Positions 8,006 to 64,000 of a stretch of DNA of 64,000 nt are shown in pieces. Source of the DNA: Octopus vulgaris (taxonomy: Eukaryota); contig OX597823.1 in assembly GCA_951406725.2 (NCBI GenBank), positions 93,682,001-93,746,000 on the forward strand, given 5' to 3'. How positions within the stretch are numbered: position 1 is the first letter of the stretch; every line of letters begins with the position of its first letter. The notes beneath the pieces were generated by a model, which did not search any database, was not told where the DNA came from, and worked only from the letters and a program-made list of their open reading frames with translations. The translations under genes were made by a program, and so were the position numbers.

Positions 8006-8794
8006 TGCCTGTGACTATTTATGCATATGTTTACACAGAGTGCGTAGAGGCTGCTTTATTGACATATCATCGATATTTACTTTATCATACGAAAGACATT
8101 TGAAGTAAAATGAAAAAGAAAATCTTCTTTAAAAAAAACCCGAGAGTCTATCCACTCCTCGGCTTTTGCCTAAAGCAGATTTTTCAACAGAAACATTTCT
8201 TTATTCTCTTTACGTCCTATAACACAGACACACACACACACACACAGACACACATGTGCATGGATGCTACTATTTACGAATACCTACCTCCGTACACATA
8301 CAGATTCAGTCGTACCTCTTCACTATTGTATAAGTTCAATATTCGTGTTCTGATAGAAAATGTCTTTCAGTATTGACATGAAAGATGATGAATAACGATT
8401 ATTAAATCAGTGTCTATATTCTTTAGAAAATTCCATGGATCTACGTCGTGGATAACGATGATTATTCCAGTTGTTCGTAGTGTTTAGCTCGGTAAAAACA
8501 CACGCACATACTATTGTGAAATTGGTTGTTTTTGTTAAGATTTTTCTGTCTTTCGTGTTACTCGAGTAAAGACGCCGAGATAATGAGTCTGTTAAATGTG
8601 TCTGGGGTTTACAGATGCGATCCAAATATCGCTTTCCAATAGTTTATTAAACTTTTGCTTCGGCCCTACTGCGACGGATTAAGGACCGCATGGTTGCGAA
8701 ATGACTATCTTAATTAGATGGTACCAACTATATGCATTTTCTTTTACTTGTTTTAGTCATTAGACTGCAGCCAAGAATTTAAATCCGAAAACTT

Positions 8795-9700
8795 TTGGAA
8801 TTTAAATTAATACAAATTAATATAAACCCTAAAGTTAAATTTACAATGCAGCGTAACAAAGAACAGCTCCCTTTCTTGGATATTATGATGAAAAAAGCCG
8901 ACAACCAAATTGTAACTGACATTTATCTTAAACCAACGGACTCGAAGCAATATCTCCTGTTTAGCTCATGCCGCCCGAAAAACATCAAAAGAAATATCCC
9001 CTTTAAAAGTGATTTGCAGAACAGTGTATAATGAAAGTACTCGGGACCTTCGTCTTCAAAACTCCAGAACAGCACTAACTGAAAGAAAATATCCACCCTC
9101 ACTTATAGACAATAGAAATAAACGTTGTAAGAAACGGTAACAAAACGTAACACCACACCTCATCTCAAAACTCTACCGTATATATCAACTCACAAACCTA
9201 GAAACAATGAGGCATACAGTACTATTTTACAAACTCTACCTATGCTGAAAAGATTTCTAACAAATATGAAGCTTTACACAATAACTACGAAACCAACGGT
9301 TAAAAATGTGGACACCCAAACTGCGGAACACGCCCCAACCTAATGGAAGGCTCGGAATTCCTATTCAAACAAGGAGATAAGTTCACAATCAAAACCAAAT
9401 TCAATTGTGCTTCCGAATATCTAATTTATGTTGTAATTTGTTCAGGTGGTGGACGTAACGATATAGGACAGACAAGTATGGTACTTAGACGAGGAACCAC
9501 ACTATATAAGGAAGAGATCCGGTTCACGCAATACACACATATTCCTTTCAGTCAACACATAGAGATGTGCAGGTAATATCCAACGAAACTGCACAGTTTT
9601 CCCCGTCTACCAGTGCAAAGAAACAATTTCTGTACAAGAACGTTTAAATAAAGAAATTTGTTCATTGAACAATACAGAACACGTCTAAATATGAATGCAT
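8795..9700 (+). mobile_element. Penelope-like element (Neptune-type) remnant: RT C-terminus, Cys linker and GIY-YIG endonuclease, frameshifted
   Basis: LPFLDI...TDIYLKPTDSKQYLLFSSCRPKNIKRNIPF (PLE RT thumb), KCGHPNCG linker, FNCASEYLIYVVICSG..DIGQTS (GIY-YIG). Confidence 0.85.
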
Positions 9701-17439: not shown

Positions 17440-18672
17440 GGATTTAAAACCAAAAGTCTTACCATACAAATCCACACACAATCCTCTTAACGGTGAAGTC
17501 TTCGACACCATCCTCCAAAGCATTCCCCTACTAAAAAGGGACCGCAGAATGAACTTAATCCTCCAAACACACAGCATCATAAAAAGCAAGAGACAGCCCA
17601 AATCTATGAAAAGTGTCCTAACGCAAGCCCGAATACGCTCAACAACACAGAAGCCGTCAGTAAAAAGATGCAGAAGATCCAAATGTGGAATATGCGTCAA
17701 TTTAATTGAGGGATGAGAGTTCTCTATCAAACAGGGACAACGTCTCACAGCGAAAAGCAGCTTCACATGTGCTTCGGAGAACCTGCACAGATCCCAGGTC
17801 AAAATTCCCCAAAACAGAAAAATAGAATTCAGCCAACACATCGACATTTGCACCAATAACAAAAATCCAAGCTTCTGAATTTTTCCCCTCTACCAATTCA
17901 GGGACGACACAACCTGTAGCCAACGAATTAGTAAAGATACTCTCTTTATTACAAAATACAGCCTCCCCACCTTTGAACGCATCTACAACAAACGACATAT
18001 CCACCACAGCCTTAGAATAACAAACACGCGCAAATATTAAAAATGATACGCTCAAGAGATTACCAAGAAACAGTCCCAATCACTGATATAATCTACAACG
18101 AGTCACTTTTAGGTCACTTGACCATTTAACATCCTACTACTATCATACCACATGCATTCCCATATTATTCTCTCCCCTTTTTATCCTTCTTCTTCTTCGT
18201 TTTCTTCCTCTCCGCCACCTCTTTCCTAACTTTACCATCTACGCAAATATTAAAAACAATACATTCAAAAGAGATGTCTCAAGAATTCAATCACTACCAC
18301 CATCCACAACGGCTCACTTTCAGGGCACTTGAGCATTAAACATCCTACTACTATCATGACACTCCCGCATTCTTCTTCTTCTCCTTCTCCTTCTGCTTCT
18401 TCCCCTCCTCCTCTTTCTTCTTCTTCTTTTCTGCCAAGAATTCACAACGACTCGAACTCACAAATGTAAACAAGAGAGACAGAGACAGGCGGAAACAAGG
18501 AAAATGCCCCTTGTATATGAATACTATGCAAATATTCTTTTAAAAAACTTTTCTTTTAATTTTTCCAAAATTTGCTTTCCATACTTACAGTTGAAAAGGT
18601 CTCAATGACAGGAACCGGTACTGAAATGTTTTTCATAAAATTATTTTAGCATTTTCTACCTTGACTTTTTCC
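17440..18672 (+). mobile_element. Penelope-like (Neptune-type) 3' remnant with downstream non-coding tail
   Basis: KPSVKRCRRSKCGICVNLIEG*EFSIKQGQRLTAKSSFTCASENL, homologous to 9290-9425; ~212-bp duplication (18028/18241); eroded hammerhead at 18588-18623; ends in (TA)n. Confidence 0.75.
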
Positions 18673-25235: not shown

Positions 25236-26823
25236 TGCCTTGGGTAGGTGCTCTTATTCCCACCGTATAGGAAGTGTTTTACGTATGATGTATGCATTGC
25301 CACGTAGTTCTATTTTCTGTGTTATATATATATTTATTAGTTCTGGTGATTTTGCTATATATTTGTTTGAATGTTTTATGATACCTAATGCGCCTATTAT
25401 GATAGGAATTGTTTCTGATTTTAGGCTCCACATTCGAGTTACTTCTATTTCCGGATCATTGTATTTTGAAAGTTATCCGGCCTACTGACCTTAAATTCTC
25501 TAAGTGTGTGTATTTACATATCCCAGTGATTGGTTGTTTCTCATTTTCTGTGACCTTCTCTGGTGTGTGCCTATACCATTTTTTTCTGTTGTTATTTAGA
25601 GTGATGGCATAGCTTCCAGTGTATATAGGTCCCAACTCTGTCGTGTCTGTGAATATATTCCTTCTTAGCAAGAACTGGGAAGCCAGCGACAACATGGTTT
25701 ATTGTTTCTTCTCCGTCACCACATATTCTCCAGTTACTTGTATTTTTTTTTTCATTACGTGTTTTGGGTGATTTCTGGTGGAAAGGCTTTGATCTTGTGC
25801 TGCAATAAAAATCCTTCAGTCTCTACGTTGAGTCTTCAGCTTCAGAGCCATTGTTGGGATTTTGCTTTTTTCTATTTCTGTTCTATTTAGTTTAACCCAG
25901 TATTTGCCACCGTTTTATCATGATCCTTTGCTGTTCCAGTTTTAATTTGGATTTCAGTTGCTTTACAGCTTTTGTTGTTTCTTTTTTTTTTCTTCATAGC
26001 TGTTAGGTACTATAAATTCTTTTTCGAATTTGTCAGATTCCTTAATGTCTGAAAACAGGTTTTTGTATTGTTCGTATCTGTGGCTATTTTTATTAGTTTT
26101 CCTGCCTTCTGATGTAATTATTACTGTAGTTCCATGATGGATATTTTGTAATAATTTTGTAGCTGTATAAGGTCTCTACCACCTTCTAGACGTTGTAATT
26201 ATAACCTTTCTATGTCAGATTTAGAGTGGTGTATCCTAAATTCTGTTACTCTTCTTTTTTCGTTTTATTTTAATTCAGTGTCCATCTAAGAATATTGTAG
26301 CTGTAACTTATAACTGGAACTGCTCGAGTGTTAATACCTATTATCGTGTTTTTCAAATTGAACTCTGTTTTCAGTATTAGTCTAACTCGTCTATAGCATT
26401 CCTTTTTTATCTTCTCTTTCATTTGTGTGTGTATCCAGTTCATTGATTCCTAAATATTTGTATGTCTGGCTTTAGTTTAATTCTTTTATGTCATTTGATT
26501 TATCTAGTGTTATATTGGTACTCTTAACTAGTTTTCCTCTTTTCAAGGTTGCTTTGGCAAATTTTTCTAAACCAGATTTCATGCTTATTTCTTTGGTAAA
26601 TCGATGTACAGTTTGTAGTAATGTTTCCAGGTGTTTATCATCTGTAGCATACAGTTTTAGTTCATCCATACACAAGAGTTGGTTGATTGTTTTGCCGTAA
26701 CAGTTGTATCGACATTCAGTTCTGTTTAGCAAGTCAAATAAAGGTGTCAGAGCCAAGCAGAAAAGGAGTGGAAAGAGCGTGTCTCCCTGGAATATTCCTC
26801 TTCCAATAGCGACAGCTTTTATC
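25236..26823 (-). mobile_element. R4/Dong-type LINE, RT to 3' end, decayed
   Basis: [22 protein letters not shown]...NQLLCMDELKLYA...GLEKFAK RT motifs; colinear with 58357-59960. Confidence 0.85.
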
Positions 26824-26899
26824 GGTATATATATATATATATATATATATATACCAGCATACATATGTATGTAAGTCTATATATATATGTTGTAATATC

Positions 26900-39197: not shown

Positions 39198-39411
39198 ACT
39201 CTTTACTCTTTTACTTGTTTCAGTCATTTAACTGTGGCCATGCTGTAGCACCGCCTTTAGTCGAACAAATCGACCCAGGACTTACTCTTTATAAGCCTAG
39301 TACTTATTCTATCGGTCTCTTTTTTCCAAAACGGTAAGTTACAGGGACGTAAACACACCTCCATCGGTTGTCAAGAGATGTTGGCGGGGACAAAAACAGA
39401 CACACAAACAT

Positions 39412-39420: not shown

Positions 39421-39444
<24 letters not shown>

Positions 39445-39673
39445 CATAATTAATCAATATAGGGTGGCAAAAAATTTCGTAGAATTTATTTGCCACCAGC
39501 GGCCTAGTGGGAAAAAATTAAATAGTCATAGACCATTTATAAGTTCAACATCACAATCAAGGAATGGCCATAATAGGCCATTCACCCACTAGAAATAACA
39601 GCCAAAGCTTCAACCGCAAAATAACATTAATTCCGCAAACCAGTAGAAAATTAAAAAAACATTTACCCTGTAA

Positions 39674-39778
39674 TTTCTTATACGATGCACCGTTTCATCT
39701 ATTGTTTAATGGTAAACTAACCTGATTAAATTAAATCAAGCCAATCTTCCATAGGCCGATAGATTCGTCAGTAAGAAA
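39674..39778 (-). ncRNA. type I hammerhead ribozyme (inverted array copy)
   Basis: Reverse complement of 40127-40231. Confidence 0.85.
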
Positions 39779-40126
39779 CAGCCAGATCCGAGCAGATATT
39801 ATCACGAGGCACCTCTATCCCTGCCTCGGCAATATCTGACCTAAAATTTTCAAATCATCGCACTCGCGCCAAATTTATCGGCAGCAAATATAAGCCGCCG
39901 ATTCCATTACGGAATTAGCCGCTGGTGGCAAATAAATTCTACGAAATTTTTTGCCACCCTATATTGATTAATTATGAATTTTCTGGTTAAATCCGTAATG
40001 GAATCGGCGGCTTATATTTGCTGCCGATAAATTTGGCGCGAGTGCGATGATTTGAAAATTTTAGGTCAGATATTGCCGAGGCAGGGATAGAGGTGCCTCG
40101 TGATAATATCTGCTCGGATCTGGCTG

Positions 40127-40231
40127 TTTCTTACTGACGAATCTATCGGCCTATGGAAGATTGGCTTGATTTAATTTAATCAGGTTAGTTTACCATTAAA
40201 CAATAGATGAAACGGTGCATCGTATAAGAAA
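40127..40231 (+). ncRNA. type I hammerhead ribozyme with branched stem II
   Basis: TTTCTTA-CTGACGA-ATCTAT...ATAGAT-GAAA-CGGTGCATCG-TA-TAAGAAA; predicted cleavage after 40224. Confidence 0.9.
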
Positions 40232-40611
40232 TTACAGGGTAAATGTTTTTTTTAATTTTCTACTGGTTTGCGGAATTAATGTTATTTTGCGGTTGAAGCT
40301 TTGGCTGTTATTTCTAGTGGGTGAATGGCCTATTATGGCCATTCCTTGATTGTGATGTTGAACTTATAAATGGTCTATGACTATTTAATTTTTTCCCACT
40401 AGGCCGCTGGTGGCAAATAAATTCTACGAAATTTTTTGCCACCCTATATTGATTAATTATGAATTTTCTGGTTAATTCCGTAATGGAATCGGCGGCTTAT
40501 ATTTGCTGCCGATAAATTTGGCGCGAGTGCGATGATTTGAAAATTTTAGGTCAGATATTGCCGAGACAGGGATAGAGGTGCCTCGTGATAATATCTGCTC
40601 GGATCTGGCTG

Positions 40612-40716
40612 TTTCTTACTGACGAATCTATCGGCCTATGGAAGATTGGCTTGATTTAATTTAATCAGGTTAGTTTACCATTAAACAATAGATGAAACGG
40701 TGCATCGTATAAGAAA
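40612..40716 (+). ncRNA. type I hammerhead ribozyme (array copy 2)
   Basis: Same sequence as 40127-40231. Confidence 0.9.
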
Positions 40717-41095
40717 TTACAGGGTAAATGTTTTTTTAATTTTCTACTGGTTTGCGGAATTAATGTTATTTTGCGGTTGAAGCTTTGGCTGTTATTTCTA
40801 GTGGGTGAATGGCCTATTATGGCCATTCCTTGATTGTGATGTTGAACTTATAAATGGTCTATGACTATTTAATTTTTTCCCACTAGGCCGCTGGTGGCAA
40901 ATAAATTCTACGAAATTTTTTGCCACCCTATATTGATTAATTATGAATTTTCTGGTTAATTCCGTAATGGAATCGGCGGCTTATATTTGCTGCCGATAAA
41001 TTTGGCGCGAGTGCGATGATTTGAAAATTTTAGGTCAGATATTGCCGAGGCAGGGATAGAGGTGCCTCGTGATAATATCTGCTCGGATCTGGCTG

Positions 41096-41200
41096 TTTCT
41101 TACTGACGAATCTATCGGCCTATGGAAGATTGGCTTGATTTAATTTAATCAGGTTAGTTTACCATTAAACAATAGATGAAACGGTGCATCGTATAAGAAA
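41096..41200 (+). ncRNA. type I hammerhead ribozyme (array copy 3)
   Basis: Same sequence as 40127-40231. Confidence 0.9.
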
Positions 41201-41322
41201 TTACAGGGTAAATGTTTTTTTAATTTTCTAATGGTTTGCGGAATTAATGTTATTTTGCGGTTGAAGCTTTGGCTGTTATTTCTAGTGGGTGAATGGCCTA
41301 TTATGGCCATTCCTTGATTGTG

Positions 41323-41403
<81 letters not shown>

Positions 41404-41421
41404 CATATGTATATAAATATA

Positions 41422-41585
41422 AACGACGGGCTTCTTTCAGTTTTGTCTACCAAATCCACTCACGAGGATTTGGTAGGCCCAAGGCTCTAGTAGAAGACAC
41501 TTGCCCAAGGTTCCACGAAGTGGGACTGAACCCGGAATCATGTGTTTCGTAAGCAAGTTATCTACCACACAGTCACTCCTACGCC
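41422..41585 (-). mobile_element. SINE family A 5' half
   Basis: ACGACGGGCTTCTTTCAG...TACCACACAGTCACTCCTACGCC. Confidence 0.85.
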
Positions 41586-58356: not shown

Positions 58357-61300
58357 CGTGTGCCTTGGGTATGCGCTGTAGTTTGTTGTGACGCTCTTAT
58401 TGTTATTGTGCCTAGTAGTGCTATTTTCTATTTGTTATATATACTTGTTAGTCGTGGTATTTTTGTTATGTACGTGTCTCAATGTTTTATCATACCTAAT
58501 GCGCCAACTATGATAGGAATTCTTTACTGATTTTAGACTATATTCGAGTTACCTCTATTTCCAGGTCTTTGTATTTTGAAAGTTACTCCGTTTCTTTCAG
58601 AGAAACGTTGTCATCTCTTGATATTGATACATCGATTAGAAAGCACTATTTTTCCTGGTGGTCTCTGACAACTACATCCGGCCTAGTAGCTTTGATTACT
58701 TTATTTGTGTGTATTCGCATATCCCAAAGAATGGTTGCTTTCTCATTTTCTGTGACCTTTTCTGGGGTAAACCTATACCATCTCTTGCTGTTATTCAAAA
58801 GTGTTGGCATAACTTCCAATGTATATAGGCCCCAATACTGTCACGTTTGTGACTATATTCCTTCTTAACCAGGACTGGGCAAGCAGAGACAATATGATTT
58901 ATTGTTTCTTCTCCATCGCCACATTTTCTGCAGTTATATGTTCTATTTCTTTTCATTGTGTGTTTTTAGTGATTTCTGGTGGGAAGACTTTGATCTTGTG
59001 CTGCTATGAAAAATCCTTCAGTTTAAGCTTTGAGTCCTGAGCATCACAGCCATTGTTGAGATTTAGCTTTAACCCAATATTTGCCATGTAGAGGCTTTTC
59101 TTGCCCTCGCTTTATCATGTTCCAGTTTTAATTCGGATTTCAGTTGTAATGCAACTTTTGTTTTTTTTTATATATGTGTTAGCTTCCTTCAAGACAGAAA
59201 ACAGTTTTCTGTTTTGTTCGTGTTTTGAGGGTATTTGTATCAGTTTTCCTTGCTTCTTAAGTCGGTATTTCTGTAATCTTATGGTGATTATTTTGTAATA
59301 ATTTTCTAGCTGTATAAGGCATCCACCACCTTCGATACGTTGTATAAATAACCTTTCTATGTCAGACTTTGGTTGGAGCATCCTAAAACCTGTCATTAAT
59401 TTTACTGCTTTCGTGTCTATTTTGATTAGTTCATTTAAAGTCTAATTAAGAATATTGTAGCTGTAACTTATAAGTGGAACGGCTAGAGTGTTGATGCCTA
59501 TTATCTTGTTCTTCGCATTGAGCTCTGTTTTCAATATTAATCTAACTAGTCTATAGTATTCTTCTCTTTCATTTGTGTGTTGTATTGTATCCAGTTCATT
59601 GATTTGTATGTCTGGCTTTGGTCTAATTCTCTTATTTTATTAGTTTTATCTAGTGTGATGTTGTCACACTTAACTAGTTTTCCTCTTTTCAAGGTTGCTT
59701 TAGCACATTTTTCTAGGTCAAATTTCATGCTTATTTCTTTGGTAAATCGATGTACAGTCTGTTGTAAAGTTTCCAACTGTGTATCATTTGTAGCGTACAG
59801 TTTTAGTTCATCCATACACAAGAGTTGGCTGATTGTTTTTCCGTAACAATTGTATCAACATCTAGGTCTCTTTAGCATGTCAGATAGAGGTGTCAGTGCC
59901 AAGCAGAAAAGGGGTGGTTAGAGCGTGTCTCCTTGGAATATTCCTCTCTTAATAGGGACAGCTTTGGGTTTTAGGACTACCTCTTTTGTCTGGAACTGTA
60001 GCACTGTTTGCCATTTATTCATGGTATGTTTTATATATTTTATGATTATTGGTGCTACCTTGTTCATGGCTTGTGTTTCTAGCATCCATGTGTGGGAAAT
60101 ACTATCAAAGTCTTTTGATAATCGATCCAAGCCATACTTAGACCCTCCTTCCTTCTTCGGTTGTCTCCAGTTATGGCTTCATTGATCAGAAACTAATCTT
60201 TAAACCCGTATGAGCCCTTGCAACATCCCTTTTGTTTTTCTGGAAGCAAGTTGTTTTCTTCCAGGCCTTTGTCCATTCTCTGCCATATCATTGCAGTAAA
60301 ACCTTTGTAAATTATAGGGAGACAAGTTATTGGTCTGTAATTTTGTAGGTTTGACGTTTCAGTGGATTTGGGAATTAGGAGAGTTTTCCTTTCGGTGAGC
60401 CATTCAGGCATTGTCTCAGGATCTCATAGTATTCCATTAAATTTCTCAGCCAGCGTTTTTGCATTCCTGTTAGATATTTTAGCCAGAGGTTAGGGATATT
60501 GTCGTACCTAGGTGCCTTCTAGTTGCCTAGTTTCTGCAATGCCTGGGTAACCTCTTCAATTTTTATTGCAGTCCAGATTTGTTCACGTGCTGATTTCATT
60601 ATTTTAATAGATCTTTTCTGAAATTGTTCCAACGTCGACCATATTTCTCTCCAAAATTCTTTCACTTCTTCTGTTGTTGGCGCTGCACTGATCTCTACTT
60701 TATTTTTGCCAAGTTCTTGGTAGATTCTTTGGGATTGGAATTGAAATGTTCGTCCAAAGAAACGTTGGCGTTCCTCATACAAGCGGATTCTTTGTGCTTT
60801 AGTGAGGACGTCTTGCTTTAGCTCTTCTTTTACTTCAGGTAGATTCTGTTCTGTAATTTTGTACTTACATAGTAATTTTCTTCTCTTCTTGTTGCTTAGC
60901 ATTGTTGATTGTCTACTAGTTTCATTAAGGATTGACAAATCCTTTCTATTCTTTTTTCTTTTTTTCTGGATATTATCTATCCACAGGTTCTGTTTGGGTA
61001 GTAATACTCCTTTTTGGGTGGGTTTTAGGGAGTATCCAGCATCTTCTGTGGCCACAGAGGCTGCTGCGTATATTATATCATTTAGCCTGGTCATATTGAC
61101 ATTTGTTTCTGTGGCCATTAGTTCTGTGAGAGCCTGGTTCATTCTATTTATTATTGATGTTGTTTTATTATCAATTCTAATTTTTGGGAGGTATAATCGG
61201 TGGTTCATACTGAAATCTGTGGCTTTCAATTCTTTGATGATGCTCATTTTTAGAGCATCATAATCAGTAGTTTCACTTCATTGTTTCCAGGTTTTAGATT

Positions 61301-62439: not shown

Positions 62440-64000
62440 CTAACTTAATAGCACCACCTGATAAGATTATTTGAATCCTGTTTAAGTCAAGTTTAGTTTA
62501 TGGTCCATTCAAGTAGTGAGTTTTTGTTGGGTGAGTTGTATCCAATTATGGGTGGCTTATCTTGTATTCCTTGAAGAAATCTATCCAGACTCCGTTTAAA
62601 GTTGATGGGATCCTTTTCCTCTTTGATCTCTTTCGGGACAATGCTAAATAGGGCAGGGCCTGTTGAGAAAAAGAAATTATGTTGCAGTGTACATGTATGC
62701 TGTGATCTTGAATTGGGCAGGGGACGTAAGGCCCGTGGTCCCAGTCTTGGATGAACCTTGAAGCTAATGTTCAGGTCGTTTGGGTAAAGTTGGGGGTATA
62801 TTCTCCACATCGTACAAATGATGTACCGCTCAAAGCGACGCTGGAGAGAGTAGAGTTTCAAGGCTTTAAGGCGATCCCAATAATCGAGAGCAGCCATGCC
62901 TTCAATTCGTTTAGTGAGTGACCTCTGGAGTGATTCAATCCTCGAGATGTTTTGTCTTGTATTGGGAGACCACAGTGGGCAGCAGTATTCGAGGTGTGGC
63001 CGTACAAAGGAGGACAAAAGTGGTATGATGACACCTTGTTCTCTGGACTGGAAAGTTCTTAAGATCCAGGAACTCATCCTACGAGCTTTATCGACCTTCT
63101 TGTTGATGTGTACACCCAACTGAGATCGTCATCAACAAATTACTCCCAGGTCTCTGATATTGTTAGAGGCTGTGAGCGGTTCCCTTGAAGGAAGAGAGTA
63201 TGGCTGTTTTAGTGAGGAATTTCTTCCAAAATGCATCAGCTCAAATTTTCCCTCGTTCAGTTGCATTTTGTTTCTGTCTGCCCATTGACTCACAGCATAT
63301 AGATCAGACTTAAGTTGAGTTCGGTCTGCTTCTTCATTGACGATTTGCTTAGTGTCATCAGCAAATATTTTCACTTTGCAGTAATGTACGACACAGGAAG
63401 GTCGTTTATGTAAATTATGAAGTGTAGCGGATCCAAGACAGTCCCCTGGGGGACGCCGCTGGTGACTTTTGCTGGGCTTGAGTGGACTCCATCAACTACA
63501 ATCTGTTGTGTTCTATTCGCCAGGAAATACTTAATCCAGTGTAGAACTTTTCCACAGATTCCAACATTTGCCAATTTTGAGAGTAGGATATTATGGTCTA
63601 CCCTGTCGAACGCTTTACTGAAGTCAAGATATATGACATCAGAGTTCGAACCTGTTCCCAAGGCTTTGAGTACATCTTCAATGTGGTGTAAGAGCTGTGT
63701 TAGACAGTCCCTGCCACAGCGAAAGCCAAGCTGATTTGCTTTTAGGAGTTTGTGGGTCTCCAGGAAGCCAGCTATCCTTGATCTTAACACTCTTTCAAAC
63801 ACTTTAATGATGTGGGAGGTGAGTGAGATTGGGCGATAGTTGAGTGCGAGGGATCTGTTTCCCTGTTTGAAAACCGGGATGACTGACTGAGTTAGAAACT
63901 GTTTCGGTATATAACCTGCGTCTAACGAATTTGTCCAGAGGTTGGTCAGAGGGACTGCAAGTTGGTGTCTACATTCCTTCAGGAGACTAGCGGGGAATCT
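62440..64000 (-). mobile_element. CR1-group (CR1/L2/Crack-like) LINE ORF2 RT and C-terminus, frameshifted, runs off the window
   Basis: NYRPISLTS, YLDFSKAFDRVDH, SGVPQGTVL, FADDTK, VRPHLEYCCPLWSP, YWDRLKALKLYSLQRR. Confidence 0.92.

Follow-up and report, generated by a model that had tools for sequence, protein, structure and literature searches.

The window, i.e., the whole stretch of 64,000 nt of Octopus vulgaris DNA that was analysed, is contained in a 2.8-Gb assembly that is rich in microsatellites. Between two (TA)n runs in this window lies a tandem array in which direct units were called by TRF at 39918-41324 (period 484, 2.9 copies, 99% matches), with unit starts at 39918, 40403 and 40887 and spacings of 485 and 484 bp. 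The direct units are preceded by an inverted arm of 473 bp (39445-39917) that is 99% complementary to them and is arranged head-to-head with them, with an overlap of 1-3 nt at the junction of the arms (39917/39918). With unit positions numbered from 39918 and direct unit 1 as the reference, the inverted arm covers positions ~68-485 and then 1-59. Thus, of the layout given in the original prediction, the inverted 473 bp and the ~2.9 direct units of 485 and 484 bp stood, while the inverted arm proved not to be an in-register unit. The array had also been described as ORF-less, and indeed no ORF of at least 100 aa overlaps it; the GC content of the unit is 37%. Features absent from that prediction are the (TA)n target and two fixed 3' ends, located near unit positions 58 (T58) and 439 (E439). 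The ends of the window copy, T58 on the left and E439 on the right, are typical of the repeat family described below. The features of the locus are as follows.

39426-39444, no strand: (TA)n target run, left flank (sequence)
39445-39917, minus strand: inverted arm, its 3' end being the T58 (tail) site at 39445/39446 (sequence comparison)
39674-39778, minus strand: hammerhead motif within the inverted arm, with cleavage predicted after 39681 (sequence)
39918-40402, plus strand: direct unit 1, 485 bp (TRF, alignment)
40127-40231, plus strand: type I hammerhead 1, predicted cleavage after 40224 (sequence, fold, copy comparison)
40262, plus strand: insertion-private base at unit position 345, C>A (exact genome-wide matches)
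40746 and 41230, plus strand, and 39644, minus strand: the same private 345A in the other units (exact genome-wide matches)
40314-40460, plus strand: conserved 3' domain (end mapping, consensus fold, sister-family comparison)
40314-21/40395-402, plus strand: stem CTAGTGGG/CCCACTAG in the 3' domain
40323-44, plus strand: GAATGGCC hairpin in the 3' domain
40356, plus strand: E439 site in direct unit 1
40357-40460, plus strand: ~104-nt 'tail'
40403-40886, plus strand: direct unit 2, 484 bp, with hammerhead at 40612-40716 and predicted cleavage after 40709 (sequence)
40409-43, plus strand: GGTGGCAAA hairpin in the 3' domain
40460, plus strand: T58 site downstream of direct unit 1
40887-41324, plus strand: direct unit 3 (unit positions 1-439), with hammerhead at 41096-41200 and predicted cleavage after 41193 (sequence)
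41324, plus strand: E439 site, the 3' end of direct unit 3 (sequence)
41325-41400, no strand: (TA)n target run, right flank (sequence, TRF)

Repeats which we take to be SINE-like flank the TA runs in the window (~39200-39400 and ~41425-41545) and also at many related loci. In a transcript reading through the whole array, base pairing would be expected between the inverted arm and one of the sense units.

An intact type I hammerhead motif was noted in all four units of the window, three on the plus strand and one on the minus strand. In hammerhead 1, stem I is formed by TTTCTTA (40127-40133) and TAAGAAA (40225-40231), the core by CTGACGA (40134-40140) and GAAA (40209-40212), and the predicted cleavage site by GUA (40222-40224); stem II is ATCTAT/ATAGAT with an insert of ~63 nt, and stem III has a UGCA loop. 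The original prediction of a complete hammerhead in each unit was borne out on reading the sequence, and the positions that it gave for cleavage of the direct units, after 40224, 40709 and 41193, were right by motif coordinates. A search with Rfam models returned no hammerhead match at the gathering score or at E<=10, and hairpin-type chance matches were below the gathering score; the absence of a hammerhead match is probably due to the ~63-nt insert in stem II.

The motif region folded at z=-3.97 (0 of 200 shuffles as good) and the monomer at z=-5.33 (0 of 100). In the minimum-energy fold, the core is paired instead of stem III being formed; in the window copy, the fold competent for cleavage lies 2.3-3.5 kcal/mol above the ensemble, compared with 0.3 for the isolated motif of subfamily C. 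A proposal that alternative pairing switches the ribozyme off in a circle was unsupported on the fold test. Among hairpins predicted earlier for the rest of the unit, GGTGGCAAA/TTTGCCACC, CAGATATT/AATATCTG and GAATGGCC/GGCCATTC were present in a 14-copy consensus fold, while TCGGCGGC/GCTGCCGA appeared in the single-copy fold and was absent from the consensus.

Conservation of the motif was evident from comparison of 157 copies, in which the core varied almost only at N7 (C/U/G/A) and H17 (A/C), i.e., almost only where hammerheads may vary freely, and in which the cleavage junction GUA/C-UAAGAAA (or a one-base variant) was intact in 156. At one locus (L192, 1498-2417), a core change of GAAA>GGAA was fixed in both units of a single arm. 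Covariation among 80 distinct main-subfamily copies was not above the shuffle control. With subfamily C included, the sole two double-sided changes among 137 consensus pairs were in stems I and II, each probably a single event on one branch. Stem III of subfamily C has G-C in place of G.U and a UAUA instead of a UGCA loop, with the palindrome retained; a palindromic stem III loop has been linked to dimeric cleavage (PMC4209133). These compensatory changes, few as the events are, support the ribozyme fold as far as sequence comparison can speak to it.

The dispersed, high-copy and mobile family that had been expected from a genome-wide search for the unit was found. At least 179 matches were obtained in a DNA search in which 40 of 1,669 candidates were scored, with 95-100% identity among the 150 matches listed. 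The exact stem III pattern had 1012+1010 = 2,022 matches in the genome compared with 3+3 = 6 for controls, and a pattern for a second subfamily had 245 compared with 0 for its control; the unit was present in 31 of 39 second-subfamily loci examined, the remaining 8 being chance matches or another repeat. From the first 100 stem III matches on C1, which by eye amounted to 42 loci, the number of dispersed insertions is estimated at ~900 or more. Thus, ORF-less units of ~485 bp with an intact hammerhead core are present at ~900 or more (TA)n sites. Exact patterns for ends placed directly on TA matched 461 times for E439 and 909 times for T58, with 0 matches for controls; the excess takes in short ribozyme-less copies and a sister family (3 loci sampled).

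This sister family, known from its 3' domain, is ~70% identical to the unit over that domain and retains both ends (e.g., L221:49-279 and L203:3106-3420). Its pattern had 32 matches with a repeat spacing of 484-492 bp, and three credible compensatory changes were noted in the 3' domain, a fourth being a misalignment. The conserved 3' hairpin domain is likely to be an RT-binding element. A further subfamily variant was seen at the E439 end of L033:345-397 and L219. An unrelated old repeat (~74-78% alike) at L180-L182 and L195 has the same 17-nt 5' hammerhead-like pattern.

Part of the unit was also contained in 19 public runs with four organism labels. Contigs from four of these, one of which may be the source of the assembly itself, cover the unit fully; such contigs cannot tell circles from tandems, and two of the four runs are RNA by guess. 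A loose contig end, ATATAT, was noted at 40356 (the E439 site) in run X15, and a pattern from the loose end of run X1 had 0 matches. These observations bear on the view that the array arose in assembly or is an ordinary satellite whose hammerhead-like motif is there by chance. In favour of this view, palindromic tandems are hard to assemble and Rfam gave no match. It is extremely improbable, however, given units that differ at single positions, a dispersed family with fixed ends, contigs of four public runs that span the whole unit and variation that spares the catalytic core.

The anatomy of insertions was determined for 93 loci consisting of the best BLAST matches, all 42 consecutive loci on C1 and subfamily C. 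The sample is about a tenth of the family, and 18 further DNA-search loci and 9 of 12 T58-only loci lie outside it. Outer ends numbered 154, of which 71 were at unit position ~58, 70 at ~439 and 13 elsewhere; nearly all of those at the two canonical sites, which are ~104 nt apart, adjoined TA (139 of 141). Among 60 simple two-armed insertions, 50 had one end of each kind, none had the same site twice and 10 had a non-canonical end. Several seemingly single arms were found to hide a tiny second arm bearing the other end, and the insertion at one locus (L002) was complex, with four arms and an inverted duplication inside it. Target-site duplications were unreadable because both flanks are usually (TA)n. 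Coding Neptune-type elements, used as a control, had mixed ends in five of six two-armed insertions, with the tail on both arms of one. The 'tail' of Penelope-like elements (PLEs) is a 30-40-bp extension that is often present on one end only (PMC8557442, PMC3846280) and has been attributed to RT starting at two internal sites (PMC11167929). The twin fixed ends of the present family are this PLE 'tail' signature.

Arms had a median length of 659 nt. Their break offsets were uniform (KS p=0.997, n=37), the lengths of the two arms of an insertion were uncorrelated, and in 14 of 50 insertions neither arm contained the other. Independent breaks and non-nested arms favour two primed cDNAs, and fold-back self-copying was rejected as a general source of the second arm; the independent arm lengths together with one start site per arm similarly argue against self-priming fold-back as the general route. 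When two pieces cut by a locus edge and arms with non-canonical ends or unresolved breaks were set aside, 121 arms were left. The 5' breaks of arms fell at unit positions 308-345 in 22 cases compared with 10.7 expected (p=0.0017), a value of 0.065 after scan correction, the width of this interval having been picked after the data were seen. Four arms outside the break sample stop at 314, 337, 337 and ~312, and sampling by ribozyme pattern under-counts stops just 3' of the cleavage site.

A source for the enzyme had been predicted in a PLE RT, and intact Neptune-type RT-GIY-YIG ORFs do exist in the same genome. In a GIY-YIG search with 150 of 6,136 candidates scored, many of the matches were in intact 781-aa frames, and a second family with many intact 811-aa frames that were 99-100% identical was found with 71 of 30,883 candidates scored. 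Both coding families have TA-anchored ends and 36-45-nt tails of their own. RT and GIY-YIG matches were obtained for these candidate donors, the RT scores being mostly below the cut-off, as was the score of P0002 for GIY-YIG, and a CX2-5CxxC motif, common to Neptune and Nematis (PMC8557442), was read before the C-terminal GIY-YIG of P0001 and P0002. By this motif, the 781-aa and 811-aa families would be of the Neptune/Nematis type.

Copies of the first family (L061-L067, e.g., L064:2081-5781) have an upstream 479-aa frame and a 781-aa RT-GIY-YIG frame and appear to be a young Neptune-type PLE family with a degenerate hammerhead-like motif, a ~36-nt tail, (TA)n targets and many intact copies. 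The 811-aa family (L140, L142-L151) is very young and has two-armed insertions. Many other Neptune-type families were seen only as fragments. In the window itself, decayed PLE RT/GIY-YIG fragments with 50% and 30% identity to the 781-aa protein were noted at 17453-17986 and 8783-9658, respectively, and frames labeled by eye as resembling LINE-type RT fragments were present at ~26472-26876, 59115-61277 and 62493-63491. Our best guess for the current donor is the 811-aa family. A Neptune-type mobiliser is suggested by the footprint rather than by sequence: comparison of three unit variants with ten Neptune-type 3' regions gave no significant similarity (best 3 of 150 shuffles, 60 tests), and a 23-nt resemblance to the 3' end of the 811-aa family was not significant.

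The possibility that each unit is a 5'-truncated pLTR remnant of a coding PLE family that escaped sampling was weighed against the same loci. The ends are of PLE type, 93 insertions were sampled of ~900 or more, Neptune-type families known only as fragments are numerous, and 24 of 57 Xenopus retrozyme families have Repbase homologues that are mostly PLEs (bioRxiv 2026.07.22.740005). Nevertheless, no RT-GIY-YIG ORF was present in the array or joined to any of the 93 insertions, which include all 42 C1 loci from the first 100 pattern matches, and none of the 93 was the pLTR of a coding PLE; by the original prediction, the array would have been an ordinary remnant had every other copy been such a pLTR. 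Arms longer than one unit enter the next unit and never coding DNA. Among 43 GIY-YIG loci, a single nested 53-bp copy of the unit was found, beside the end of another PLE. The closest neighbours also proved to be separate insertions: L107, where the TA run at one end of an 811-aa-family insertion has a retrozyme copy nested in it, and L130 were rejected as coding parents since the Neptune-type copy has its own ends with a TA run or host DNA between, and L135 was likewise rejected as a joined neighbour. Other tblastn neighbours (L008, L109, L111, L115, L179, L193 and L204) were judged by strand, position and flanks only. An E439/T58 pair 4.65 kb apart showed unit sequence in the 201 nt sampled, and the 32 matches of the sister family, with their 484-492-bp repeats, included no kb-spaced same-strand pair. 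We consider it very unlikely that the units are pLTR remnants.

The earlier proposal, in which a PLE RT acting in trans mobilises the retrozyme, agrees with the dispersed high copy number, the 93 ORF-free insertions, the PLE-type ends and the intact Neptune-type frames of this genome, and mobilisation of a non-autonomous element by a PLE is, in our estimation, highly probable. The nature of the template was approached through variants shared by units of the same insertion. Divergence between arms, calculated for segments of at least 100 nt and for bases away from gaps, averaged 0.4%, whereas divergence from other insertions had per-insertion medians of 4-9%. Alleles seen nowhere else in the sample were fixed in all covering units of 24 of 73 multi-segment insertions and on both arms of 14 of 51 two-armed insertions. 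At two-arm sites with at least three segments, such alleles comprised 44 singletons, 6 of intermediate frequency and 13 that were fixed, and only 3 of 171 within-array variants were common to both arms in a subset of units. Genome-wide privacy was tested in one assembly for three variants with exact contexts of 26-29 nt. Thus, 345A of the window had exactly four matches, namely its own four units on both arms, and more than 99% of the depth in each of the four public runs reads C at 40262; the L207 variant had five matches, all in its own insertion and on both arms, and the L187 variant had five, all in its own insertion and on one arm. Four variants that were fixed and private within the genome sample were found in 3 of the 18 near-identical youngest insertions. 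A check for A-to-I editing as the source of fixed variants gave A>G in 4/21 versus 4/80 (p=0.056) and an A>G:T>C ratio of 4:3.

Private variants that fill an insertion point to a monomeric, probably circular, template, and a homogeneous parent array absent from the one assembly could be an alternative source of them; the fixed L192 change in the catalytic GAAA likewise counts against repeated copying of a monomer. The private variants also bear on the view that a PLE mobilised uncleaved linear multimers, with arrays lengthened and homogenised by unequal exchange and gene conversion and with a weak or incidental ribozyme. Consistent with that view, one or more cleavage sites were read through in 110 of 121 arms, and periodic or mosaic variants were noted in long arrays of up to 14 units in one arm (period 4 in L136, period 3 in L110, mosaic in L172, and also L024). 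Such arrays are retrozyme insertions turning into satellite, and they indicate that duplication in place also makes tandems. Moreover, the 2026 preprint, which shows pLTR homology in Xenopus and in which only one of nine retrozyme dimers was cleaved in vitro, puts forward local amplification (bioRxiv 2026.07.22.740005), and unprocessed RNA was the main in vitro substrate in a study in which cleavage was not needed for insertion (PMC11167929). Against uncleaved multimers stand the U shape of the within-insertion spectrum (44/6/13), the filling of both arms by genome-unique variants alongside persisting singletons, and the rarity of variants on both arms in a subset of units (3 of 171). Uncleaved multimers are, on balance, an unlikely template.

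A linear cleaved monomer, from the end of which the RT jumped back to the start without any covalent circle, would explain the monomer bottleneck equally well, and there is a cluster of stops immediately 3' of the cleavage site. The junction was intact in 156 of 157 copies, however, whereas end-to-end template jumps are usually imprecise. In the retrozymes of corals and mussels, circles are also the dominant form (PMC7229834). At the level of DNA, a circle and jumping from end to end would look alike; taking these points together, we judge a circular template probable and a linear monomer quite improbable.

The array and its relatives are thus best described, with reasonable though incomplete confidence, as a Penelope-like retroelement that is non-autonomous, is a non-LTR retrozyme in kind and would move as follows. 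Tandem transcripts would self-cleave, possibly as a double hammerhead via the palindromic stem III loop, to 485-nt monomers, some of which would be ligated into circles. A Neptune-type RT-GIY-YIG protein acting in trans would place one nick in each strand of a (TA)n run, and the two nicks would prime reverse transcription at separate internal sites of one and the same template (E439 and T58, in the conserved hairpin domain). Each cDNA would run round the monomer and stop independently after some hundreds of nt, with stops somewhat commoner just 3' of the cleavage site, as expected at the end of linear cleaved RNA. Joining of the two cDNAs would yield a head-to-head insertion with tandem units, and some long arrays have been further duplicated in place. 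A bolder reading is that the family is a viroid-like circular RNA of animals whose mutations arise in RNA before integration, by RNA-to-RNA copying or error-prone synthesis, and that a dimeric Neptune-type RT rolls round the circle, its subunits priming asymmetrically at two sites of the same molecule. This reading arises because each of the three variants tested genome-wide fills its whole insertion although the assembly contains no unit that could be its parent, and because of the four such variants noted among the 18 near-identical youngest insertions. Parents missing from one assembly are a simpler explanation, and we hold the bolder reading to be rather unlikely.

The significance of the retrozyme reading lies in the display of a PLE-specific twin-end footprint on an ORF-less ribozyme repeat. 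The mutation pattern is as expected of a single-monomer template, and together with the footprint it makes the genomic case for a PLE mobilising the family from a monomer unusually direct. The PLE mechanism is also sharpened in that one start site per arm was used in 50 of 50 resolvable cases, and the presence in one genome of young intact RT-GIY-YIG frames and a 485-nt substrate opens the whole cycle to in vitro study.

In L1 twin priming, two target nicks prime two cDNAs, creating an inversion in which the two parts do not overlap. The present insertions likewise suggest two nicks and two cDNAs, but their arms, unlike those of L1, start at fixed sites 104 nt apart and copy the same sequence. 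Compared with PLEs that carry an endonuclease (EN+) of the Neptune/Nematis type (PMC8557442, PMC3846280, PMC11167929), the family likewise has 5'-truncated and partly tandem insertions, with the 5' arm inverted and the tail confined to one end; its targets are similarly AT-rich or microsatellite sequence, and a hammerhead lies upstream of the 3' end. It differs in having no ORF and in a tail of ~104 nt as opposed to 30-40 nt (36-45 nt in the coding families of this genome). The hammerhead core is canonical in the family and mostly degenerate in the local coding families. PLEs with an N-terminal EN (Naiad, Chlamys) are presented in the text of PMC8557442 as being without canonical hammerheads. 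Non-autonomous Chlamys elements such as MRC1 are similarly ORF-less PLE derivatives with multicopy head-to-tail insertions, but generally resemble their partners at the 3' end (PMC8557442), whereas no partner match was found here.

Retrozymes are an established class, of which the present family is a new member. It has several of the attributes by which non-LTR retrozymes are recognised, namely a hammerhead in consecutive tandem units, a short non-coding unit, GC below 50% and a dispersed mobile family, and its head-to-head tandem anatomy has no LTR architecture. In agreement with descriptions of non-LTR retrozymes (PMC7229834; bioRxiv 10.64898/2026.07.22.740005), it consists of non-coding type I hammerhead tandems that range from dimers to multimers, co-occurs with PLEs and has a monomer that is predicted to be highly folded. 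The unit of 485 nt is longer than the 170-400 nt of the species tested and within the 51-972 bp of the 2026 survey. Circle-templated tandem cDNA and PLEs as mobilisers were proposed without test in PMC7229834 and repeated in PMC7761336, and PMC4209133 likewise treats PLE mobilisation and circular templates as hypotheses; to this idea the 2026 preprint, in its text, adds only homology and co-occurrence (bioRxiv 2026.07.22.740005). Searches of the open-access literature turned up neither this family nor a comparable anatomy for any retrozyme. Compared with other non-LTR retrozymes, then, the family has a stem II insert of ~63 nt and has no homologous coding pLTR among the sequences found, and it shows (TA)n targeting, twin fixed ends and head-to-head arms, which are features undescribed for retrozymes in the text of PMC7229834 and bioRxiv 10.64898/2026.07.22.740005.
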